Notes under the pieces: model-generated
Seen by the model: only the letters and a program-made list of their open reading frames with translations
Told to the model about the DNA's origin: nothing
The model's database searches: none
Translations under genes and position numbers: made by a program
Shown here: positions 6,273 to 63,662 of the stretch, in pieces
Position numbering within the stretch: position 1 is the first letter of the stretch
Layout of the letters: the number at the start of each line of letters is the position of its first letter
Assembly (NCBI GenBank): GCA_964621395.1
Contig: CAZULS010000002.1
Coordinates: 87,306 to 151,305, forward strand
DNA: 64,000 nucleotides
DNA from: an uncultured Candidatus Saccharibacteria bacterium
GTDB lineage: Bacteria; Patescibacteriota; Minisyncoccia; Phycocordibacterales; JACNGX01
Direction of reading: 5' to 3'

Positions 6273-6274
6273 TT

Positions 6275-6362
6275 GGGTACGAAGTACGAATCAATACGAA
6301 CATACGAAGACAGGGCCTGGAAAAGTAATGTTCGTATGTTCGTACTCGTTCGTAGTTCGTAA
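6275..6362. repeat. A-family palindromic element GGGTACGAAGTACGAATCAATACGAACATACGAAG...TTCGTATGTTCGTACTCGTTCGTAGTTCGTAA
   Basis: Imperfect inverted repeat of TACGAA hexamer arrays. It starts 3 nt after the sufS stop and ends 5 nt before the sufU start. A near-identical copy lies at 6728..6816. Confidence 0.7.
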
Positions 6363-6366
6363 TCAT

Positions 6367-6726
6367 ATGTATAATTTATACCACGAAGAAATTATGGAAC
6401 ATGCGCGCAACCCTCTTCATAAAGGGGTGTGTGAGGACGCGACCCATACACATAAGGGTGTGAATGCAGGATGCGGTGACGAGATTTCTCTTTCTGTGAA
6501 AGTCTCTGACGGTATCATTGAAAGTATGTGCTTTGATGGAGAAGGATGTGCGCTTTCCGTGGCTGCGTGTGATATGCTTTCCGGTGTGGTGAAAGGCAAA
6601 AGGGTGGAGGATGTGCTTTGTATGTCGCCGAAGGACATCTATGATATGCTTGGTGTTTCGGTGACGCCATCGCGAACGAATTGCGCTCTCTTGGGTTTAA
6701 GAACACTGCATAAGATGCTAAGGTAG
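6367..6726 (+). CDS. sufU: Fe-S cluster scaffold SufU/IscU-like (NifU N-terminal domain)
   Basis: GCGDEISLSV...FDGEGCALSVAA cysteine motifs. The longer predicted ORF (6046..) merely translates the upstream A repeat. Confidence 0.8.
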   Translation: MYNLYHEEIMEHARNPLHKGVCEDATHTHKGVNAGCGDEISLSVKVSDGIIESMCFDGEGCALSVAACDMLSGVVKGKRVEDVLCMSPKDIYDMLGVSVTPSRTNCALLGLRTLHKMLR

Positions 6727-6727
6727 C

Positions 6728-6816
6728 GGGTACGAAGTACGAATCAATACGAACATACGAAGACAGGGTCTGGAAAAGTAATGTTCGTATGTTCGTACTC
6801 GTTCGTAGTTCGTAAC
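6728..6816. repeat. A-family palindromic element, second copy
   Basis: Differs from 6275..6362 by one substitution. It fills the sufU-sufC spacer. Confidence 0.7.
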
Positions 6817-6819
6817 TAT

Positions 6820-7563
6820 ATGATTTTTTCTACACACAATATTCATATCACGACAAAGGACGGTACTGAAGTGGTTTCGGGTGTGTCGCTTGAGCTTGAA
6901 AAAGGGAAGTGTGCGGTGCTCATGGGGAAAAACGGATCCGGTAAGAGCTCGTTTGTCCTTGGATGTATGGGTCATCCGCGATATGCCATTACGGAAGGGT
7001 CGGTGCAGGTGAGCGGTATGGAGATAACCACTCTCCCTACACACGAACGCGCACGAAACGGCATGTTTCTTTCTCCGCAAGCATCCCCGGCTATTTCGGG
7101 TGTTGCACTTGGGTCATTTATCCGGTCTGCCGATACCCATCTTCATCCGAAGCATGAGCATACACCACTTGCATTTCATACAGAGCTCACCAAGAAAGCG
7201 ACGGAGGCAGGTTTTGATGCCGAGCTCCTCTCTCGTGGTGTGAATACTGAGCTTTCAGGAGGACAGAAAAAACAAACCGAGATTATACAGCTTCTTGCAC
7301 TTGCACCGAAGGTTGCGCTTCTTGATGAGATTGATTCAGGTGTTGATATTGAAACACTCAATGCCGTATGCGAGAGTATTCGAAAGGCATGTGAAAAGGG
7401 CACGGCAGTTCTCGTGGTAACGCATAATCCGGAAGTGGTGAAGAAACTTTCTCCCAACCGTGTGTACGTTATGGATGGGGGGAGAATCGTTGCTTCAGGT
7501 GATGCTTCGCTTGCGGAGAAAGTGAAAGATGAAGGGTTTGGCGGAGTGGAGGGAGAGACATAA
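6820..7563 (+). CDS. sufC: Fe-S cluster assembly ATPase SufC
   Basis: Walker A GKNGSGKSS, ABC signature LSGGQKK and Walker B LLDEIDSG. The start is at the ATG that follows the repeat. Confidence 0.85.
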   Translation: MIFSTHNIHITTKDGTEVVSGVSLELEKGKCAVLMGKNGSGKSSFVLGCMGHPRYAITEGSVQVSGMEITTLPTHERARNGMFLSPQASPAISGVALGSFIRSADTHLHPKHEHTPLAFHTELTKKATEAGFDAELLSRGVNTELSGGQKKQTEIIQLLALAPKVALLDEIDSGVDIETLNAVCESIRKACEKGTAVLVVTHNPEVVKKLSPNRVYVMDGGRIVASGDASLAEKVKDEGFGGVEGET

Positions 7564-11727: not shown

Positions 11728-11917
11728 CAGGATAGAGTATACACAGGAGCTAAACGCTCCTGTTTTTTTGTGCTTGTGCACGGTGCGGCGTTTTTCTTTA
11801 GAAAAACGCCGCACCATTATATTGCATATGCACAGAATATCCCTGTTCATTGTACGAAAATCGTTATATACTTATATACCAAGGACATCATCTTCGTTAA
11901 TCGTTTATCGTTTTTCC

Positions 11918-13480: not shown

Positions 13481-13720
13481 TTACGAATTGCGAATAACGC
13501 GAATATACGAATATTGCAGCTAGAAACTAAATATCTGTCATCCTGAACTTGATTCAGGATCCAGAAAAAGTGAAGATTCCGGATCAAGTCCGGAATGACA
13601 CTAAACAAGATTCTCATTTTATACGCTACGAAATATAATACGGTGTATAGAAATCGTAAGCCCGAAGCAGGCAGGTCACCCATTCGTATATTCGTATTAT
13701 AATTCGTAATTCGCATATTG
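13481..13720. repeat. Composite A/B element: A-type arms (ACGAATTGCGAATAACGCGAATATACGAAT ... ATTCGTATATTCGTATTATAATTCGTAATTCGC) enclosing B-type hairpins
   Basis: Inverted A-type arms flank GTCATCCTGAACTTGATTCAGGATC and GATTCCGGATCAAGTCCGGAATGACA. Confidence 0.6.
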
Positions 13721-21680: not shown

Positions 21681-22343
21681 TCAGGGGAAAAAATGGAAAC
21701 GGACTTTATGCATCTTCTCCAATGCATCAGCAAGAATAAGACTTTCCTCGGCATTGATGAGAATTTTCTGAATGAACTCACCTTCTCCTAATCTCATTCT
21801 CATGTCGAGGTGAAAGTAGCTATCATCCTCGAGTGTAGCACTTAGACAAGAAAGATCTTTATCCCAAGCTGGAATACGTTTCGATCCTGAGTCTCCGTTG
21901 AAGAGATAGAATTTTATTTTGGTGTTAACTCGCCCCTCTTCTAGTTTTAAATATAACTCAAAACCGGTGATGTATACCTGCGAAGAGGGTGGTGTGAGTT
22001 TACCGTGTATCCTCAACTCTTTTCCTTCACGAATGAATTTTTTCCGATAGAGAACGACTGTCCGGTCTTCTTCGTCTCTGAGTATCTTGGATTGTTCGCT
22101 CTCCGGGAGAGCAAGGAACTTTTTTGCGTCTTCAATAACGGGTTTCTCCTCGAGCCCCTGATTTCTTCCTGGGAGGATATCCATAGGATTAGTTTTTGGC
22201 ATGACTTTTTTCTGTTTAAAGGGTTGGGATAAAGTGCAACTGCATGTAGGGTAATGCATATATGAGATAAGGTCAAGTTTGGCTATTGCCATTTTTTGCT
22301 CTTTTGGTATGATAATGAGCGCCCCTGACAGGACAAAGCACAA
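21681..22343 (-). CDS. hypothetical protein
   Basis: 220 aa ORF with no recognisable family. The true start may be the internal MPKTNP at 22253. Confidence 0.45.
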   Translation of the reverse strand: MCFVLSGALIIIPKEQKMAIAKLDLISYMHYPTCSCTLSQPFKQKKVMPKTNPMDILPGRNQGLEEKPVIEDAKKFLALPESEQSKILRDEEDRTVVLYRKKFIREGKELRIHGKLTPPSSQVYITGFELYLKLEEGRVNTKIKFYLFNGDSGSKRIPAWDKDLSCLSATLEDDSYFHLDMRMRLGEGEFIQKILINAEESLILADALEKMHKVRFHFFP

Positions 22344-22358
22344 AACGACAAAAGAATA

Positions 22359-22431
22359 TTCCGCGGTAGCTCAGTTGGTAGAGCGGTCGGCTGTTAACCG
22401 ATTGGTCGCAGGTTCGAGCCCTGCCCGCGGA
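22359..22431 (+). tRNA. tRNA-Asn (anticodon GTT)
   Basis: Cloverleaf: acceptor TCCGCGG/CCGCGGA, D-arm TAGCTCAGTTGGTAGAGC, anticodon loop CTGTTAA, T-arm GCAGGTTCGAGCCCTGC, discriminator G. CCA is not encoded. Confidence 0.85.
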
Positions 22432-22445
22432 GCATAATATAGTTT

Positions 22446-22475
22446 GACCCCGAGGCATGTCCTCGGGGTCTTACT
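22446..22475 (+). terminator. Hairpin GACCCCGAGG-CATGTC-CCTCGGGGTC after tRNA-Asn; it is also the centre of a ~95 nt palindrome
   Basis: Perfect 10 bp stem. The flanks TAATATAGT / ACTATATTA and the tRNA 3' end / inverted copy extend the palindrome. Confidence 0.55.
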
Positions 22476-22632
22476 ATATTACTCCGCGGCAGGGCTCGAA
22501 CGGCGGAGCAGCGGGTCCCCGCTTGCGGGGCTGCGAGCCGCGTCCAGGAGTACTTTGCGGATTGCGAATATCTGGAGCAATACGCTTAGTAACTCCGGGA
22601 CAGTCCTGCCCGCCCTTTGGGGCGTTTTTCAT
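22476..22632 (+). other. tRNA-associated conserved GC-rich element, copy 1
   Basis: Inverted copy of the tRNA-Asn T-loop-to-acceptor region (CTCCGCGGCAGGGCTCGAAC) fused to the core GGCGGAGCAGCGGGTCCCCGCTTGCGGGGCTGCGAGCCGCGTCCAGG. It ends at the terminator CGCCC-TTTG-GGGCG-TTTTT. About 60 nt are shared with 33040..33104 (minus strand). Confidence 0.4.
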
Positions 22633-22840
22633 ATGCTCCGCGGGAGCAAGCCAACTGCTTAGCTTGCGTCAGGGCTCGAAAGCCGCAGCCATGTTGGAGC
22701 GCTTGCGCGACGACGGCGAGGCCGGGTCGGAAGCACTTAGCAGAATACGAGCTTTAGCGAAGTGTTATGCTTAGTGACTTGTGACCGAGCACTTAGTATG
22801 GTCCCGGGTGAGGCATGTCCTCGGGGTTTTACAGATCGTA

Positions 22841-22869
22841 TTGACAAACAGCAAGCTGTCGATTAGAAT
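22841..22869 (+). promoter_or_regulatory. Candidate sigma-70 promoter TTGACA-N17-TAGAAT
   Basis: Consensus -35 and near-consensus -10. A ~170 nt transcript would end at the terminator CCGCC-TCAC-GGCGG-T7 near 23020..23048, and contains no ORF. Confidence 0.4.
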
Positions 22870-23104
22870 AGACACAGACATAAGGACCTTGTCTCATCAG
22901 CATCAAGTCCGAGCCTCTTGGCTCATTACCAAGCGGCTGAGAGGCCTAAAAAAATACGATGCCGTTGGCAGGGCCCTGCCGATGTTGATGGACTTGGTCC
23001 TTTTTTGTATAAAGCAAAACCGCCTCACGGCGGTCTTTTTTTGTGCCAGCCACTCACTTTTCACTGCTTAATACCTCAATAGGCTTATACAAAATGATAG
23101 GAAG

Positions 23105-27122: not shown

Positions 27123-27304
27123 CTGTCATCCCGCACTTGATGCGGGATCCAAGCAGACATAATTATGTAGGTAAAACTCTGGATTCCAGGGTCTTGTCAG
27201 GAATGACACATCCTAGGGTTATTCGAAAACCAAGATTGAGTTTTGGTATGAATACCAAAGCTCAACCTTGGTTTTAAGATCCCGCATCAAGTGCGGGATG
27301 ACAG
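27123..27304. repeat. Large B-family element with terminal inverted repeats CTGTCATCCCGCACTTGATGCGGGATC ... GATCCCGCATCAAGTGCGGGATGACAG and internal AAAACCAAG...CCTTGGTTTT palindrome
   Basis: 27 bp TIRs flank ~130 bp. A MITE-like organisation. Confidence 0.65.
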
Positions 27305-29070: not shown

Positions 29071-29257
29071 AGAGCCTGTTCGTAATCTCATGTCGTGCGT
29101 AATGCATCATATACCGAGCGAAAATCGTGAAAAGTGTTGATGGAGTACTGTCGTACTTCGAGACACTTTAAGCGATTTACAGCCGGTATATGGCGCATTA
29201 AGCCGACAAGGACATGTTCTTCTTCGTTCAATTCCGTTGAGATTATGAACAGGCTCT
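29071..29257. mobile_element. MITE family D copy 1 (~187 bp, 20 bp perfect TIRs AGAGCCTGTTCGTAATCTCA / TGAGATTATGAACAGGCTCT)
   Basis: The internal sequence carries a second inverted repeat TATACCGAGCGAAAATCG / CGATTTACAGCCGGTATA. Tandem copy at 29325..29512, third copy at 58698..58884, degenerate inverted copy at ~49497..49725. Confidence 0.7.
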
Positions 29258-29324
29258 TAGATGACACACTCAGTATATATGAGAATACCGATTGACTGAA
29301 AGTTTTTTTTGTTCTCTGACTTTA

Positions 29325-29512
29325 AGAGCCTGTTCACAATCTCATGTCGTGCGTGACACACTCATATACCGAGCGAAAATCGTGAAAAGTGTCGAAGGAG
29401 TACTGTCGTACTTCGAGACGCTTTGAGCGATTTGCAGCCGGTATATGAGTGTGTCAGCCGGCAAGGATATATCTTTCTTTCTCCTATTCCGTTGAGATTG
29501 TGAACAGGCTCT
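29325..29512. mobile_element. MITE family D copy 2
   Basis: ~85-90% identical to copy 1, with the same TIRs AGAGCCTGTTCACAATCTCA / TGAGATTGTGAACAGGCTCT. Confidence 0.7.
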
Positions 29513-29570
29513 AAGAGGAGAAAAAAGTGAGCGCGGCGGGGCAAAGCCCCGCCGCGCTAAGTGGTAAAAT

Positions 29571-31057: not shown

Positions 31058-31163
31058 TGTCATCCCGCACTTGATCCTACATTGCAAGCAATCGGATACA
31101 ATGCGGGATCTCGAGAGAGTTGTTTCATAACGTTTAGATCCCGCATCAAGTGCGGGATGACAG
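31058..31163. repeat. B-family MITE-like element (TIRs TTGTCATCCCGCACTTGAT ... GATCCCGCATCAAGTGCGGGATGACAG)
   Basis: Immediately upstream of the PBP2 start. The GTG that begins the predicted ORF at 31150 lies inside the right TIR. Confidence 0.65.
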
Positions 31164-31173
31164 AAAACACACC

Positions 31174-32895
31174 ATGACCGACATATCCACATCACGTATT
31201 CAGCTCATATTTATTCTTTTCTGCGCATTGGCGCTTGTTTTTGTTGCGCGGCTTTTTCATGTGCAGATTATTCACGGTGCTGATTTCAGAAAAGAAGGAG
31301 AGGGGCAATATGTGCAAACGGTGTCAGATCGTTTCGACAGAGGAACAATTTATTTCACCCCAAAGGATGAGGACGAACCACCTTTCCCCGCCGCGACACT
31401 CAACTATGGCTATCGCGTGATTATGGATCCTTCGAAGGTGGAGTATCCGGGAGAATCATGTGAAGCACTCGAGAATATTATCCTCGAGCTTTCCTATGAA
31501 ACATGTGTCGCACACACACAAAAACACAACGATCAATATGAGCTCTTGGCAGAGGGATTGAATCAGAGGGATGCTGATTTGATTCATGATATAGACGATA
31601 AAGGTATCGGTGCATATCGGTATAGTTGGCGTTTTTATCCGGGCGGATCGTTGGCGTCGCATGTACTTGGTTTTGTTGGCTACAGTGGTGACACTCTTGG
31701 TGGTCGCTATGGTCTCGAGCGGCAGTATGATGCGGCTCTCAGGCGAACGAGCGAGAGCGTGCAGGTGAATTTCTTTGCCGAACTGTTTTCAAATATCGCC
31801 GACAGTATTCTGTATGCCGACAAGGAACGCGAAGGAGATATTGTCACATTCATAGAACCAACGGTGCAGGGGTTTGTTGAAGATGTTTTGGACGATGTGG
31901 GTGATGCTTGGAAATCCGAAAGCGGCGGTGCTATTGTTGTTGATCCCAATACCGGAAGTATCCATGCTATGGCGGCATTTCCTACGTTTGATCCCAATGC
32001 CTATGGAGAAGAGGATACGGTGTCGGTGTTTGCGAACCCTCTTGTAGAACGTGTGTATGAAATGGGCTCTATTGTGAAGCCGCTCACGGTGGCGGCAGGA
32101 CTCGATGCGGAAGCAATAACCGCAGAGAGCACGTATGATGACACGGGGAGTATCACACTCGACGGCTATACCATCGGCAATTACGACGGCAAAGCGCGCG
32201 GAGTGGTGGATATGCAAGAGGTGTTGAGTCGTTCGCTCAATCTCGGTGTTGCACATATTGTGAGTGAAATGGGGAATGATGTCTTTGCCGAGTATATGCG
32301 TGCATTCGGTATCGACGAAGAAACCGGTATCGATTTGCCCGGAGAAGTACATGGCTTGGCGGATAATCTCGATAGCAGTCGTGATATTGAATTTGCCACT
32401 GCTTCTTTCGGGCAGGGGATTGCCATGACGCCAATTGAAGCAACAATGGCACTCTCAGCTCTCGCAAACGGTGGCGTGCTTCACGCTCCGCTTGTTGTCG
32501 ATAGGATTATGTATCCTGGCCGTCCGGATAAACATATGTATCCTGATGATGGGCGGCAGGTGATCTCGGAAGCAGCTTCGGAAGAGATTACGCGAATGTT
32601 GGTGCGTGTTGTCGATGAAGCGCTTGCCGACGGTACGGTTGCATTACCGCATCACTCAATTGCCGCTAAAACCGGTACAGCACAGATTCCTGATCCGGAG
32701 AATGGCGGGTATTATGAGGACAGGTATCTCCACTCCTTTTTCGGATACTTCCCGGCATATGACCCGCAATTTTTGGTCTTCCTCTATCATGTGTATCCCA
32801 AAGATGTGGATTATGCATCACAAACACTCACGGATCCATTCATGGACATCGTGAAGTTCCTGATTACGTATTACGATATCGCACCGGATCGGTAA
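31174..32895 (+). CDS. penicillin-binding protein 2 / FtsI-type peptidoglycan D,D-transpeptidase
   Basis: N-terminal TM helix, dimerisation domain and transpeptidase motifs (SIVKP region, SxN, KTG in KTGTAQ). Confidence 0.85.
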   Translation: MTDISTSRIQLIFILFCALALVFVARLFHVQIIHGADFRKEGEGQYVQTVSDRFDRGTIYFTPKDEDEPPFPAATLNYGYRVIMDPSKVEYPGESCEALENIILELSYETCVAHTQKHNDQYELLAEGLNQRDADLIHDIDDKGIGAYRYSWRFYPGGSLASHVLGFVGYSGDTLGGRYGLERQYDAALRRTSESVQVNFFAELFSNIADSILYADKEREGDIVTFIEPTVQGFVEDVLDDVGDAWKSESGGAIVVDPNTGSIHAMAAFPTFDPNAYGEEDTVSVFANPLVERVYEMGSIVKPLTVAAGLDAEAITAESTYDDTGSITLDGYTIGNYDGKARGVVDMQEVLSRSLNLGVAHIVSEMGNDVFAEYMRAFGIDEETGIDLPGEVHGLADNLDSSRDIEFATASFGQGIAMTPIEATMALSALANGGVLHAPLVVDRIMYPGRPDKHMYPDDGRQVISEAASEEITRMLVRVVDEALADGTVALPHHSIAAKTGTAQIPDPENGGYYEDRYLHSFFGYFPAYDPQFLVFLYHVYPKDVDYASQTLTDPFMDIVKFLITYYDIAPDR

Positions 32896-32923
32896 GTTAG
32901 AAGTTAGAGACTAGAAGTTAGAA

Positions 32924-32976
32924 AAAAGGAAACAACAAGCGGCGCTCCTTTCAGGAGCGCCGCTTGTTGTTTTGTG
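32924..32976. terminator. Bidirectional intrinsic terminator (18 bp perfect stem AACAACAAGCGGCGCTCC-TTTC-GGAGCGCCGCTTGTTGTT)
   Basis: A-run upstream and T-run downstream. Shared by PBP2 (+) and the minus-strand tRNA-Glu-associated element. Confidence 0.7.
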
Positions 32977-32991
32977 ACGGGAATCGTCCCG

Positions 32992-33110
32992 CAGTCACTA
33001 AGTAAAATGCTCCGGGCACTCGCATTTTACAAAGTGCTGCTGGACGCGGCTCGCAGCCCCGCAAGAGCGGGGACCCGCTGCTCCGCCGTTCGACTCCCCG
33101 TAGGGCCTAC
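32992..33110 (-). other. tRNA-associated conserved GC-rich element, copy 2 (minus strand, downstream of tRNA-Glu)
   Basis: The minus strand reads GTAGGCCCTACGGGGAGTCGAACGGCGGAGCAGCGGGTCCCCGCTCTTGCGGGGCTGCGAGCCGCGTCCAG. This is an inverted copy of the tRNA-Glu 3' end plus the same core as 22501..22550. Confidence 0.4.
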
Positions 33111-33155
33111 AAAACGCAACGACACCGAAGGCATGCTTCGGTGTCGGCGTTATTG

Positions 33156-33227
33156 TGACCCTACGGGGAATCGAACCCCGGTTTTATCCGTGAGAGGGAT
33201 ACGTCCTAGCCGCTAGACGATAGGGCC
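33156..33227 (-). tRNA. tRNA-Glu (anticodon CTC)
   Basis: Minus strand GGCCCTATCGTCTAGCGGCTAGGACGTATCCCTCTCACGGATAAAACCGGGGTTCGATTCCCCGTAGGGTCA. 3-bp D stem typical of tRNA-Glu, anticodon loop CTCTCAC, T-loop TTCGATT. Confidence 0.8.
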
Positions 33228-33407
33228 ATATTACATTGTTGTTACAGAGCCGCTAGCCCCGATATTGCCCAAATCTTTGATTTGGCTGCAATATCGTGGG
33301 TCCTCGGTGGTGCGACCAAGCTATGCTTGGGCACCACCGGGAACGATAGGGACATATTGCAACGTGTGGATTATTGTAATACAAAAAAAGAAAAAGGGCA
33401 ATAGAAG

Positions 33408-33440
33408 AAGCCCCGACAAGTCGGGGCTTCAACTTTTTTT
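33408..33440. terminator. Hairpin GAAGCCCCGAC-AAG-TCGGGGCTTC with flanking T/A runs (bidirectional)
   Basis: Downstream of the minus-strand exonuclease gene. Confidence 0.55.
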
Positions 33441-33557
33441 GATGTACATACACATAGTTTTTTGTGAGAAAATTAATTAATTTTTATGAGAGAGCAAAAA
33501 TACCGCGTGAGCGGCACTTTTTAATCTCCTAACATTTAACCTCCTGATTTCCTAATA

Positions 33558-34142: not shown

Positions 34143-34161
34143 TGCATTATGATACCATATC

Positions 34162-34272
34162 GGGTACAAAGTACGAATATATACGAACATACGAAGATAG
34201 GGTTGTTTCGGAAAATGAATTGCAGGGTATACATTGTGTTCGTATGTTCGTACTCGTTCGTAGTTCGTAACC
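34162..34272. repeat. A-family element (GGGTACAAAGTACGAATATATACGAACATACGAAG ... TTCGTATGTTCGTACTCGTTCGTAGTTCGTAACC)
   Basis: Same architecture as 6275..6362, with a longer central spacer. Nearly identical to 36041..36152. Confidence 0.65.
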
Positions 34273-34291
34273 TGTGATATACTAATACCTA

Positions 34292-36040: not shown

Positions 36041-36152
36041 GGGGTACGAAGTACGAACGTGTACGAACATACGAAGATTGAGTTGTTTCGGAAAATGAAT
36101 TGCAGGGTATACATTGTGTTCGTATGTTCGTATTTATTCGTAGTTCGTAATA
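36041..36152. repeat. A-family element, near-duplicate of 34162..34272
   Basis: GGGGGTACGAAGTACGAACGTGTACGAACATACGAAG...TTCGTATGTTCGTATTTATTCGTAGTTCGTAATAACC. Confidence 0.65.
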
Positions 36153-36155
36153 ACC

Positions 36156-49496: not shown

Positions 49497-49725
49497 AGAG
49501 CCTGAAAAAGTGTTGCCTTTTCGAGAGTTTTGTGTTACACTTAGAATCTAATCAAGATTTCAACGCAAGAGGATAAAAATCCATGTTGCTTGCCGGCTGA
49601 AATGCCCATATCCCGGCTGCAAATCGTTCAAAGCGTCTCGAAGTACGACAGTACTCCTTCAACACTTTTCACGATTTTCGCTCGAGATATGAGCATTTCA
49701 CGCTCGACATGAAATCTTGCTCAGA
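49497..49725. mobile_element. Degenerate, inverted copy of MITE family D
   Basis: CCGGCTGCAAATCGTTCAAAGCGTCTCGAAGTACGACAGTACTCCTTCAACACTTTTCACGATTTTCGCTCG is the reverse complement of the family-D core. The termini are eroded. Confidence 0.5.
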
Positions 49726-51934: not shown

Positions 51935-51939
51935 TCAAC

Positions 51940-51975
51940 GGGTACGAAGTACGAACCAATACGAACATACGAATA
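51940..51975. repeat. A-family left half-element GGGTACGAAGTACGAACCAATACGAACATACGAATAC (solo)
   Basis: Immediately after the rplM stop. There is no matching right arm. Confidence 0.55.
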
Positions 51976-52074
51976 CAGTGTTTAAGAAGTATTCACGTGT
52001 ATCGTTTTTCATACCACAGACGACAGCAATAGTTTCAGTTTAACGTCTATAGTTTATCGTTTTTATTTACTTTC

Positions 52075-56868: not shown

Positions 56869-57093
56869 TGTCATCCCGCACTTGATGCGGGATCTCGAGA
56901 GAGTTGTTTCTTGACGTTTAGATCCAGCCCCACTTTCACTGATTAGTTTATATGGCTATTTTAAGATAGACGAAGTTTCTAACTTGCTTTAAAGAATAAT
57001 TTAATCAGTGAAAGTGGGGCTGGATGACAGCAAAAGAGAATAGCGAAGCAAAAGTCCTATTCGTATGTCCGTACATCTTCGTACTTCGTACCC
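56869..57093. repeat. B-family element (GTGTCATCCCGCACTTGATGCGGGATC ... CAGTGAAAGTGGGGCTGGATGACAGC) followed by A-family right half TTCGTATGTCCGTACATCTTCGTACTTCGTACCC
   Basis: The same B + A-right arrangement precedes trpS (62141..62277) and aspS (63488..63602). Confidence 0.6.
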
Positions 57094-57155
57094 CTTTTTG
57101 TATTTCAGGAAAAATATGATATGCTCATGCCAGAATTTTTTGTAACTTTAGCTTT

Positions 57156-58697: not shown

Positions 58698-58884
58698 AGA
58701 GTCTGTTCACAATCTCATGTCGTGCGTGATATGCCCATATGCCGAGCGAAAATCGTGAAAAACGGTGATGGAGTACTCTCGTACTTTGAGACGTTTTGAG
58801 CGATTTGCAGCCGGTATATGGGCATATCAGCCGACAAGGACAATTTTTATTCATTCAATTCCGTTGAGATTATGAACAGGCTCT
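58698..58884. mobile_element. MITE family D copy 3 (TIRs AGAGTCTGTTCACAATCTCA / TGAGATTATGAACAGGCTCT)
   Basis: ~85% identical to 29071..29257. Its right TIR supplies the in-frame ATG at 58872 upstream of the acyltransferase gene. Confidence 0.7.
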
Positions 58885-58889
58885 TACAT

Positions 58890-60488
58890 ATGAAACAGCG
58901 TCTCAAAGACGTGTGGTGGACCGTTATTCCATGGATACTCCAAACAATCGTGTGGATTCCCGCGCAGATTATTCTGCACTTCTTCCTTCGCCTTCGTGTA
59001 GAAGGATATAAACGGATCAAGCACATTCGCGGACCGGTTATTTTCGTATCCAATCATACAAGCTACTGGGATCCGATTATGATTCCGGCGGCGTTGCCAC
59101 TCTTTTCTCGATTTTTCCCAATGATGTATGTGGCACGTGAGCGCAATTATTACAGACGTGCCAAACACTTTATCGGTGCGACATCGTTTAAGGTATGGGG
59201 GGCGCATCCGGCACACGGCGGACTGTGTGATTATGCTCGCTCACTCGATGACCATGAACGGTTTCTAAACCAAGGAAGAAGTGTGTGCATGTTTCCTGAA
59301 GGGACGCTACCGGAAGAGGAAGACAGCATCCAACCTTTCAAAGGAGGCATTGGCTATTTGGTATGTCATACAAAAGCAACGATTATTCCTGTCTCCATTA
59401 CAGGGATGTTTTCTGTAACAGCAAAAGATTTCTTCAGCAGGAAACGTCGTGCCACACTCACATTCGGCGAGCCGCTTACCAACAACCCGCTCTGCGTCGT
59501 TGCCAAGGGGGAAACACCCGATGTGGAGTGTTACAAAAAAACCGCCGAAAAGATTAGAGAAGAATTAAGCGTTCTTTTTTCAATTGGTTACAATACGATG
59601 CACGATTATCTTCCCGAACAAGAATATCATCATGCTTTCGCTAGACCATTTCGCGCTATTGGTCGTTTTATACTCAATCATTTACATCTTGTTCCGGGTA
59701 TGAATAATATAGCGCGAAAGACAAACAGAGGCGCGCGAGAAGTACTGGAGAACAAAACAACGCACCAGGCCCTGGAAGTGCTGTATCGGAAAGGGGACAC
59801 AGGGAAAAAAGAAACATTTCTGGGAAACATATTTCGTTCACTATGGTTTTTTACCGACAATGCGAAAGGAGTCAGAAACCGTCTTAGAATTGTAAAAAAT
59901 GGAATTGTGAGAGAGCTCGTAAACATTCATAGCGATGAATGTCACAATAATACTGTGCACATGCTCAGTATTGCGTCTGGATCGGCGCGCGCGGTGCTGG
60001 AAGCGATACAGCGAGCAAGAGAAATGAATGTCGAAAAGGACATTCATGTAACCTTTTTAGATAAAAGTCCTCAGGCAATTTCATACAGTCGCACATTGGC
60101 ACAATCGGTATGTGATGAAGATGTTCTCAAAAAAACACACATGCAATGGGTGACTGACACTGCAAGCAATTTTACAAAGTACGCAGATGAGGGGTCTTTA
60201 GATATTATTGAAATGGTCGGCCTGCTTGACTACTTCGATGACGAAAAAGCGCAACGTCTTTTTGAAAAAGCGTACCGCTACTTACGTTCAGGAGGCGTGT
60301 TCATTACTGCCAATATTGACTATAATAAAGAGTATGCATTCGTGAACAACTTTGTCGATTGGCGTATGATATATCGTTCATCGCACGAGTTAGCAGCGTT
60401 AGCGCGTCGTGCTGGCTTTAATGCACAGTACATGCGCGTATATACAGAACCTCTCGGAGTTCACAATGTGCTCATCGTGAGGAAATAA
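58890..60488 (+). CDS. fusion protein: N-terminal 1-acyl-sn-glycerol-3-phosphate acyltransferase-like (PlsC/LPLAT) domain + C-terminal class I SAM-dependent methyltransferase-like domain
   Basis: HxxxxD box NHTSYWD and the FPEGT box in the first ~200 aa. The C-terminal ~200 aa have Rossmann-like methyltransferase motifs (SIASGSARAVLE, FLDKSPQAI, DIIEMVGLLDY, LRSGGVFITAN). Confidence 0.55.
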   Translation: MKQRLKDVWWTVIPWILQTIVWIPAQIILHFFLRLRVEGYKRIKHIRGPVIFVSNHTSYWDPIMIPAALPLFSRFFPMMYVARERNYYRRAKHFIGATSFKVWGAHPAHGGLCDYARSLDDHERFLNQGRSVCMFPEGTLPEEEDSIQPFKGGIGYLVCHTKATIIPVSITGMFSVTAKDFFSRKRRATLTFGEPLTNNPLCVVAKGETPDVECYKKTAEKIREELSVLFSIGYNTMHDYLPEQEYHHAFARPFRAIGRFILNHLHLVPGMNNIARKTNRGAREVLENKTTHQALEVLYRKGDTGKKETFLGNIFRSLWFFTDNAKGVRNRLRIVKNGIVRELVNIHSDECHNNTVHMLSIASGSARAVLEAIQRAREMNVEKDIHVTFLDKSPQAISYSRTLAQSVCDEDVLKKTHMQWVTDTASNFTKYADEGSLDIIEMVGLLDYFDDEKAQRLFEKAYRYLRSGGVFITANIDYNKEYAFVNNFVDWRMIYRSSHELAALARRAGFNAQYMRVYTEPLGVHNVLIVRK

Positions 60489-62140: not shown

Positions 62141-62277
62141 TTGTCATCCCGCACTTGATGCGGGGTCTAAGCGTTACGAAACAACTCTTTCGAGATCCCG
62201 CATCAAGTGCGGGATGACAGGAAAAGAGAGTATTAAGAGCCTGTTCGTATGTTCGTACTGTTTTGTACTTCGTACCC
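62141..62277. repeat. B-family MITE-like element (75 bp, TIRs TGTCATCCCGCACTTGATGCGGGGTCT / AGATCCCGCATCAAGTGCGGGATGACA) + AGAGCCTGTTCG + A-family right half
   Basis: The TTG that starts the predicted trpS ORF lies inside the A repeat. The real start is 62314. Confidence 0.65.
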
Positions 62278-62313
62278 CTCCCGAAAATTGTGTTTTGTGA
62301 TATAGTGGTGTCT

Positions 62314-63309: not shown

Positions 63310-63602
63310 GTTACGAACTACGAATAATGCGAATATACGAATATAGTTTATATCAAGCAATACACGTGTTATCCTGGACTCTTGCCGAGCTCGACTTTCA
63401 CTGAATAAGCAAAAATATCAAAAACGATAGAAGAAAGAATAAAAAGTGTGTCACCAGAAATGCTTGTTGGTGAAAGTGAGGCTCTGGTGATTCAGGATCT
63501 CAAAAAGTGAAGATTCCGCATCAAGTGCGGAATGACAGTAAAGGTGGGTAATGGTATAGAAGATGTCTTCGTATGTTCGTATAACTTCGTACTTCGTACC
63601 CG
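63310..63602. repeat. Composite A-left arm (GTTACGAACTACGAATAATGCGAATATACGAATATAG), truncated B hairpins, A-right arm (TTCGTATGTTCGTATAACTTCGTACTTCGTACCC)
   Basis: It fills the trpS-aspS spacer. Confidence 0.6.
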
Positions 63603-63662
63603 AAGAGAGTTATTGAGCTGCATACATAGTAATATTATTGTTTCGACATCATTTAATTTCCT

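Follow-up and report, generated by a model that had tools for sequence, protein, structure and literature searches.

Bacteria of the candidate phyla radiation have tiny genomes, and both their acquisition of genes and their control of RNA maturation are poorly known. REP sequences and BIMEs (REPINs) are mosaic extragenic palindromes; they and bacterial miniature inverted-repeat transposable elements (MITEs) have a RAYT or a transposase as partner. The rtT RNA of Escherichia coli tyrT (Rfam RF00391) consists of tRNA-linked direct repeats and is confined to enterobacteria. tRNA-like processing signals are known from mascRNA/MALAT1 and from mitochondrial tRNA punctuation. Integrative elements, such as tyrosine-integrase islands and prophages, duplicate attachment sites at the segment of tRNA genes that runs from the T-loop to the 3' end; Williams (Nucleic Acids Res, 2002) is said to be an example source for such duplications. 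Here, we describe an element directly downstream of a tRNA-Glu(CTC) gene on the minus strand of a 64-kb stretch (the window) of contig CAZULS010000002.1. The element belongs to a previously undescribed repeat family of Patescibacteria that is modular and structured and whose function is unproven. It fails at least one defining feature of each known family against which it can be tested (an integrase, R-boxes, constant terminal inverted repeats, an Rfam match, or a nuclease gene).

PBP2, encoded beside tRNA-Glu, assigns the window to the Patescibacteria, with Candidatus Yonathbacteria as the best named relative (59% identity). The window contains two tRNA genes by ARAGORN and Rfam, tRNA-Asn(GTT) on the plus strand and tRNA-Glu(CTC) on the minus strand. 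Copies in relatives were obtained from a genome-collection scan and from contigs fetched through PBP2 homologues, and each such locus (L-numbers) was taken with flanks of up to 20 kb. The family sample is small and partly redundant (about 10 loci, some near-identical); the fold alignment holds ten copies from six assemblies. In the following, a0 is the segment that the element copies, i.e., the last ~20 nucleotides (nt) of the tRNA gene, from T-loop G57 to the discriminator plus CAA. The inverted copy of a0 is a', the direct copy is a, and H is the hairpin between the tRNA and a'.

Architecture at the two tRNA genes of the window

The features of the tRNA-Glu locus are as follows.

33155-33227, minus strand: tRNA-Glu(CTC) (ARAGORN; Rfam tRNA model, 59.9 bits)
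33113-33151, minus strand: hairpin H, AACGCCGACACCGAAG-CATGC-CTTCGGTGTCGTTGCGTT, center of a palindrome of ~90 nt
33088-33110, minus strand: a', GTAGGCCCTACGGGGAGTCGAAC, inverted copy of tRNA-Glu positions ~53-73 plus trailer
33046-33087, minus strand: core hairpin A, GGCGGAGCA...GCGAGCCGC, base and internal loop conserved, distal stem variable
32986-33045, minus strand: core hairpin B, GTCCAG CAGCAC TTTG (GTAAAATGC-loop-GCATTTTAC) TTAGTGAC TG CGGGAC
32974-32985, minus strand: a, truncated direct copy of the tRNA-Glu 3' segment, GATTCCC-GTCAC, with 6 acceptor nt deleted
32930-32972, both strands: intrinsic terminator of 20 bp, bidirectional, common to the convergent PBP2 gene (terminator scan)
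31150-32895, plus strand: PBP2 gene, convergent with tRNA-Glu

The unit, in the order a', hairpin A, hairpin B, and a, spans ~135 nt. H is terminator-like on both strands, with weak T-runs (terminator scan, 33146-33120). Hairpin B has a long stem, conserved U.U-type internal loops, and a purine-rich terminal loop; the core ends in ...CTGCGGGAC, after which a begins, and CCTTTTTTCT stands directly after the terminator on the tRNA strand. Compared with the 3' end of tRNA-Glu, a' matches at 17/20 positions ungapped and 22/26 gapped, with one additional A opposite the discriminator. A 20-nt probe from that 3' end finds only two matches in the window at up to 3 mismatches, the tRNA itself and a' (0.00 expected from 100 shuffles).

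A sister copy and a degenerate tandem copy follow tRNA-Asn.

22286-22313, plus strand: promoter-like site upstream of tRNA-Asn
22360-22433, plus strand: tRNA-Asn(GTT), host of the sister copy (ARAGORN, Rfam)
22434-22481, plus strand: hairpin H(Asn), without a T-run, 48/48 identical to that of L055 (Yonathbacteria)
22480-22614, plus strand: sister element (a', 22480-22501; A, 22502-22541; B, 22542-22601; a, 22602-22614), 121.8 bits
22607-22629, plus strand: intrinsic terminator, CGCCC-TTT-GGGGCG TTTTT, overlapping the end of a
22634-22794, plus strand: degenerate tandem copy, subtype 1b, 93.9 bits
22810-22832, plus strand: H(Asn)-type hairpin remnant GAGGCATGTCCTCGGGG, then TTTT

At this locus, a reads AGTCCTGCCCGCC. 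In the subtype 1b copy, a further hairpin, C (loop AACTGCT), interrupts a', B is retained, hairpin A belongs to a variant type, and all that is left of a is CGAGC.

A preliminary description of the tRNA-Glu copy had listed H, an inverted copy of the tRNA-Glu 3' end, a core shared with the Asn locus, and a terminator shared with PBP2, and all of these are present in the order described. It had also stated that similarity no greater than chance in low-complexity GC sequence would count against its reading. The 64 kb hold exactly two occurrences of the 21-nt core seed GGCGGAGCAGCGGGTCCCCGC (0.00 expected), and hairpin A agrees at 40/42 positions between the Glu and Asn copies. The covariance model it had proposed, built here as model R1, finds exactly three copies in the window, namely Glu, Asn, and the degenerate third, at 127, 122, and 94 bits. 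Some details needed revision. The palindrome does combine the hairpin with the inverted T-loop/acceptor segment, but it is more extensive than described, running imperfectly over ~90 nt from the T-loop through the trailer, H, and the inverted trailer to the end of a'. The supposed tail is the truncated copy a (32985-32974), and what had been taken for a separate variable hairpin is the tip of the long, conserved hairpin B, where changes are compensatory.

The arms follow the local tRNA. When reverse-complemented, a' agrees with its own tRNA at 22-25 of 26 positions, with the same tRNA type of another genome at 20-23 of 26, and with noncognate tRNAs at 14-21 of 25-29, the top value in this last group coming from a cross-genome tRNA-Asn. 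The T-stem of tRNA-Asn is GCAGG/CCTGC in the window and GTAGG/CCTAC in L055, and both a' and a are altered in step. Asymmetries are conserved as well: the additional A opposite the discriminator is present in Glu and Ala copies, and a 1-nt deletion is found in both Asn copies. The direct repeat formed by a0 and a begins in the T-loop (C56/G57) and extends to the discriminator or the following CAA; it was found at both window loci (Glu and Asn) and in L003, L055, L057, L071, and L049. A proper intrinsic terminator follows a at both window loci and in L055.

Copies of the other end of the tRNA were observed upstream of tRNA genes. At ~33343-33357 (minus strand), the window has one partial direct copy of the tRNA 5' end plus leader (ATATGTCCCTATCGT, compared with ATATGGCCCTATCGT at the tRNA start). 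In relatives, such units comprise the leader and the first 17-23 nt of tRNA-Asn or tRNA-Glu, measure 75-95 nt, and stand two to five in tandem (L055, 4025-4355; L057, upstream of 12332 and 5061; L073, upstream of 7183). In a more distant relative (L060, 14400-14521, minus strand), the terminator stem of tRNA-Glu reaches 11 nt into the 3' strand of the acceptor (CGTAGGGTCAC...GTGACCCTACG), and no core follows. Thus, a minimal palindrome of a0, H, and a' can exist on its own.

Covarying fold, occurrence, and module exchange in relatives

Every copy folds as a three-way junction in which the a':a helix closes hairpin A and hairpin B (GTCCAG to GGGAC), and the ten-copy alignment yields the same consensus. 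Covariation supports this fold. Standard pairs fill 92.4% of the cells; column shuffles give 77.4%, and sliding the partners lowers the figure to 33-43%. Both sides have changed in 21 of the 32 pairs (8.6 ± 2.1 in shuffles; 0/500 shuffles reach 21), and in helix 4 of hairpin B this applies to 10/15 pairs. The compensatory changes therefore exceed those of both shuffled and slid controls, as for structured RNAs in general. Conserved nucleotides (TCGAAC, GGAGCA/GCGAG, CTTWG/CTTAG, and GAR..YGGA) are found at the junction and in loops, both the internal ones and the terminal one of B, while distal stems are free to vary. Counts of G.U and A.C in stems (6 versus 6) do not decide between the strands.

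The same architecture was found in at least 8 other Patescibacteria assemblies, at tRNA-Glu, tRNA-Asn, and tRNA-Ala. The genome-collection scan and the PBP2-homologue contigs yielded copies in L003 (tRNA-Ala), L001, L002, L072, Yonathbacteria L055 (tRNA-Glu and tRNA-Asn), and L057 and L071 (both tRNA-Glu), as well as element fragments in L050 and L053. Model R1 scores the relatives' copies at 60-136 bits. The view that the same arrangement at two tRNAs is no coincidence is borne out by this recurrence, with covariation, at three tRNAs of other Patescibacteria. The wider proposal of a tRNA-associated mechanism or function fared less evenly: the recurrent arrangement is real, but a dedicated functional RNA that pairs with tRNA is not established, given absence from a closely related strain, copies without a tRNA, and mosaic behavior. 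Nor do other tRNA loci generally have the element, which is missing at tRNA-Tyr (L002), tRNA-Pro (L073), and one tRNA-Glu (L059). Conversely, L002 and L055 hold copies away from tRNA genes, which argues against a dedicated tRNA-associated RNA.

Database searches returned no described relative of the element. Among Rfam 15 models, that for tRNA alone matches in the window and in 9 related loci. Relaxing the threshold to E ≤ 10 over 32700-33500 gave only overlaps of 15-30 bits on the terminator hairpin, far below gathering cutoffs and to unrelated enterobacterial small RNA and microRNA models. The element is without a match in the phage and plasmid BLAST collections, and a scan of viral contigs yielded 10 matches, all of them chance matches in coding DNA. 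A metagenome scan with a gapped core pattern retrieved 44 loci, nearly all chance matches in GC-rich open reading frames (ORFs); the only real one, L017, is the same contig as L002.

Several candidate identities were considered and rejected. Protein coding was rejected because a six-frame translation used as a chimeric protein query found no relatives at E ≤ 1. A tmRNA, a permuted tmRNA, and a reverse-strand tRNA-like gene were rejected, as ARAGORN predicts none, no D or anticodon arm is present, and the 5' strand of the T-stem does not adjoin the T-loop. For the primer-binding site of a tRNA-primed retroelement, a' would be expected to behave differently, as it runs into the genomic trailer rather than CCA and has the additional base at the discriminator. 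Hairpin A did not fit a kink-turn or group II domain V by inspection.

Within the family, parts are exchanged. Hairpin A is nearly uniform within L055 (57/58, Glu versus Asn), as it is within the window, whereas orthologous loci of different genomes agree at 32/58 positions; for hairpin B, copies cluster in part according to tRNA type. In several copies, a' is interrupted by hairpin C, whose loop ACTGCT is conserved. A module termed X stands in place of A and B in L002, L057, L055, and L073, and a module D follows a in L057, L071, and L053. At tRNA-Asn of L057, the 3' end of the tRNA is a different one that includes CCA; the gene has a terminator of its own and module X, and a displaced series of a, H, and a' comes next.

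Cargo varies in the same positions. L049, whose PBP2 is 97% identical to that of the window, has a glyoxalase gene between a0 and a in place of H, a', A, and B, and it retains a full-length a together with the final 9 core nt, CCGCGGGAC. L076 comes from the same sample and differs from the window upstream of YgjV. Downstream of tRNA-Asn in L055, the first element is followed by a HAD gene and then by three more units that alternate with three ORFan genes. These genes are mutually unrelated and without a Pfam family, and a canonical terminator stands after the full-length a that is farthest from the tRNA. The further units share 81-100% identity over common stretches of 57-94 nt; several near-identical copies lie within 3.5 kb. 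This is the one array seen in which palindromic sites alternate with single ORFs.

Mobile or accessory genes were observed near relatives' elements (L002, 882-1631; L052, 4317-5093; L003, 4965-6572; L057, 1-1453). They encode an IS4/IS5-type DDE transposase, an rve transposase directly after PBP2, a DNA methylase, and a TaqI-like restriction-modification pair, and their presence fits tRNA-flanking variable regions. No protein family recurs among the neighbors of the element loci. Separately, several public contigs start or end inside the element core (position 1 of L074 and L075; ends of L050, L053, L055, and L057). The repeat thus breaks short-read assemblies next to tRNA genes, which explains the recurrent assembly breaks there.

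Proposed insertion into tRNA genes and competing readings

We tentatively favor the reading that the element is a small, nonautonomous insertion into the T-loop-to-3'-end segment of tRNA genes, with a foldable attachment-like structure, and that it is cotranscribed with the tRNA. The tRNA would then end in a0, and the inserted DNA would comprise the trailer, H, a', and the two-hairpin core, A plus B. Under this layout, a would be the displaced old tRNA end, still with its old terminator, and a0 and a would be the duplicated attachment core of an element that recombines in the tRNA T-loop. Through the inverted copy a', a single strand could form a duplex version of that core, with a' paired either to a, closing the three-way junction, or to a0, extending H. 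The folded strand might be presented as in integron attC or CTX-phage attP sites, and the conserved loops of A and B could be the part recognized by a recombinase or accessory factor encoded elsewhere. Lying between the tRNA promoter and terminator, the unit would also be transcribed as a tRNA trailer.

The loci display a set architecture with tRNA-matching arms around a covarying three-way junction and a terminator after a. They also display presence/absence and cargo polymorphism, module shuffling, intragenomic homogenization, and an array that alternates with unrelated genes. A direct repeat that starts in the T-loop and carries the terminator, strain-variable cargo, tandem accretion, and homogenization are all expected products of tRNA integration, and insertion is tentatively taken as the best single explanation; the variable surrounding regions, rich in accessory and mobile genes, also count in its favor. 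From these features, we infer site-specific recombination, a folded single strand as the substrate, and an enzyme acting in trans. Classical integrase sites leave a' and the branched core unexplained, and these parts would make sense if a' pairs with a or a0.

Comparison with described sites shows likeness and difference in turn. As in tRNA-targeting integrative elements, the tRNA segment from T-loop to 3' end is directly repeated, the proximal copy completes the tRNA while the distal copy retains the old downstream context, cargo varies among strains, and accretion at one tRNA is tandem. Unlike them, the unit measures just ~190-250 bp, no integrase lies within it or among the neighboring ORFs scanned, and there is an additional inverted copy of the attachment core and a three-way-junction core that is the same at three tRNAs. 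With integron attC and CTX-phage attP, the element shares an imperfect palindrome, conserved extrahelical bases, and arms free in sequence but kept in structure. As with attC, units lie 3' of single unrelated ORFs in the L055 array, and the palindrome ends at G|TTCGA, which recalls the attC R' box G|TTRRRY. However, the boxes here are YTCGAAC/GTTCGAR (T-loop) rather than RYYYAAC/GTTRRRY, with C instead of R at position 4. Moreover, the loci examined hold no intI, attI, or Pc, and the array is headed by a tRNA gene. Finally, the element conserves its terminal structure and varies its arms, the opposite of attC.

Several observations weigh against insertion. Pfam scans of neighboring ORFs revealed no integrase, Y1/HUH transposase, or other recombinase adjoining any copy. 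An empty site, with the tRNA joined directly to the flank of a, was not recovered among close PBP2/YgjV relatives, which showed only alternative cargo (the glyoxalase gene of L049 and the other upstream gene of L076) or contigs broken inside the repeat. H(Asn) is identical at 48/48 positions between the window and L055, and core blocks are kept, although the proteins are only 44-79% identical, a pattern that resembles purifying selection on a host function no less than it resembles mobility. Movement between tRNAs requires rewritten arms, for which gene conversion or palindrome-templated repair are the sole routes offered. Two further points would be just as expected of an RNA: in 8/8 copies, folding is more favorable for the tRNA strand than for its complement (consensus, -42.9 versus -34.3 kcal/mol), and a promoter and a terminator bracket tRNA and element. 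The sample is also small, at about 10 loci.

A more ambitious form of the insertion reading, which we regard as unlikely, is a tRNA-anchored cassette system. Units consisting of the core only or of a single gene would be serially inserted into the T-loop of tRNA-Asn, tRNA-Glu, or tRNA-Ala through a folded single-stranded attachment site that copies the T-stem/acceptor helix of its target, with the A/B junction as the recombinase recognition module. Such a system would be an analogue of integron attC with tRNA mimicry in place of R-boxes. If insertion is the correct reading, the element would be a new gene-cassette route into the tRNA genes of these bacteria. That a new mechanism is at work, whether of cassette insertion or of tRNA gating, is a minority possibility.

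The alternative that survives best holds that the tRNA, H, and the three-way junction form one transcript that acts at the RNA level. We consider this possible and nearly as likely as insertion, on the placement of promoter and terminator, the lower predicted fold energy of the tRNA strand, and the deep conservation. In one variant, a' would toggle between closing the junction with a and invading the 3' half of the tRNA at a0, and the state of the junction, bound by a protein or ligand, would gate folding and maturation of the tRNA. In another, the closing helix would share the 3' strand of the tRNA acceptor/T stack up to the discriminator and recruit RNase P, RNase Z, or the CCA enzyme, releasing a stable RNA of ~135 nt; H would then be an RNase III-type processing hairpin. 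If an RNA role is correct, the element would be a cis element of a new kind, through which folding and processing of the host tRNA are coupled to a structured RNA.

The arrangement of both window loci suits such a transcript. At tRNA-Asn, a promoter-like site precedes the tRNA, H lacks a T-run, and the terminator overlaps the end of a; at tRNA-Glu, the element lies between the weak terminator H and the strong one. A promoter on the opposite strand would have no space there, as the gap between the PBP2 terminator and the element is just 4 nt. The lower energy of the tRNA strand points the same way, as do the unpaired conserved blocks, purine-rich loops, and variable, covarying distal stems, which are typical of structured RNAs. 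Pairing of a' with the tRNA, raised in the preliminary description, is predicted in silico: in the minimum-energy fold of tRNA plus element, a' sequesters 21-23 nt of the tRNA 3' end at all six loci tested, and separate folding of tRNA and element is predicted to be 7-22 kcal/mol less stable than this joint fold. In addition, orthologous tRNA-Asn and tRNA-Glu loci have retained the element over a divergence of roughly genus level.

Other findings speak against an RNA role. The 97% relative L049 lacks the element, copies occur without an adjoining tRNA and after protein genes, and truncation of a at the window Glu locus and in L002 weakens the junction-closing state. A dedicated regulator would not be expected to have its hairpin A homogenized within a genome or to swap modules A, X, C, and D, and G.U and A.C counts give no decisive strand signal. 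Known tRNA-linked RNAs offer partial parallels. Like rtT at tyrT, the element is a repeat downstream of a tRNA gene that holds a copy of the tRNA 3' end and would be cotranscribed with the tRNA; unlike it, rtT has direct repeats only, its sequence and structure are unrelated, and the element is without an Rfam match. By analogy with tRNA-like processing signals, RNase P or RNase Z could be drawn to a helix that mimics the acceptor/T-stem by using the tRNA's 3' strand and discriminator, and could excise an adjoining RNA. This mimic, however, has no T-loop or D-arm, and its 5' strand does not copy that of the tRNA but complements the 3' strand perfectly, such that G3.U70 of tRNA-Ala becomes A-U. 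Under either reading, model R1 provides a searchable motif for annotating variable regions of Patescibacteria genomes.

A selfish mosaic repeat of the REP/BIME or MITE kind, spread into or beside terminator hairpins via single-stranded DNA hairpins by a RAYT or an IS200/IS605-type enzyme, appears doubtful. Its founder would have formed at a tRNA terminator, and quasi-palindrome (template-switch) correction would have maintained the matching of the arms. Units do stand directly after intrinsic terminators of tRNA and protein genes, the interchangeable palindromic modules resemble BIMEs, several near-identical copies lie within 3.5 kb in L055, other hairpin repeat families are abundant in the window, and assemblies break inside the core. 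In these respects, the element is a short, structured, intergenic palindromic mosaic at the 3' ends of transcription units. Its copy number is low, however (three in the 64 kb, all at tRNA genes), and its terminal arms vary from copy to copy and match the local tRNA instead of forming constant terminal inverted repeats or a constant REP unit. To our knowledge, no REP or MITE family has such arms. The ~110-nt core with its conserved three-way junction is large, branched, and far more elaborate than REP units, and no RAYT, TnpA, or other transposase partner was seen in Pfam scans of neighboring ORFs.

Still less probable is a functionless by-product, in which illegitimate recombination, fold-back replication, and partial duplication would have left the copies as scars around tRNA genes that are highly transcribed. 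The partial tRNA copies upstream (tandem leader plus the first 17-23 nt) and the occurrence of degenerate and truncated copies are in keeping with it, but blocks and structure are kept with compensatory changes across genomes with 44-79% protein identity, and the same core adjoins three different tRNAs. A guide RNA resembling TnpB/IscB omega-RNA, with the core as scaffold and the tRNA-matching flank as a guide aimed at the tRNA gene, is highly improbable: a 17-23-nt segment that equals or complements a genomic target does directly adjoin a structured scaffold of ~110 nt, but scans of neighboring ORFs found no TnpB, IscB, or Cas gene adjoining any copy, no omega-RNA, HEARO, or IS605-orfB model of Rfam matched even at E ≤ 10, and the tRNA-matching segments flank the core on either side and form a helix together, with no constant motif ahead of the putative target.

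Other repeats and a possible small RNA in the window

Downstream of the copies at tRNA-Asn, the plus-strand region 22841-23045 holds a near-consensus promoter (TTGACA-17-TAGAAT, 11/12) and, after it, a structured stretch of ~170 nt with a terminator-like site at its end (23019-23034). The sole ORF of this stretch is without a Pfam match, and the stretch may encode a small RNA. The corresponding place in the relative L076 holds a different protein gene.

The window also harbors other repeats. A separate REP-like family is formed by the hairpin repeat TGTCATYCCGnnCTTGAnnCGGRATC, of which the window has at least 15 copies in the two orientations (e.g., 13565-13605, 27124-27154, 31127-31167, 56869-56899, and 62184-62224); it is also present in Yonathbacteria L055 at ~11750-11780. 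Repeats of 158-183 nt with 66-87% identity, direct and inverted, lie at 29107-29264, 29362-29519, 49543-49725, and 58702-58892, some of them overlapping predicted ORFs. Palindromic arrays rich in TACGAA, GGGTACGAAGTACGAA...TTCGTATGTTCGTAC, are located at 6274-6369, 6727-6822, 34161-34274, and 36041-36154, and further ones at 51939-51981, 57056-57095, 62240-62279, and 63564-63603. Related GAACATACC hairpins flank the element fragments in L050 and L053.

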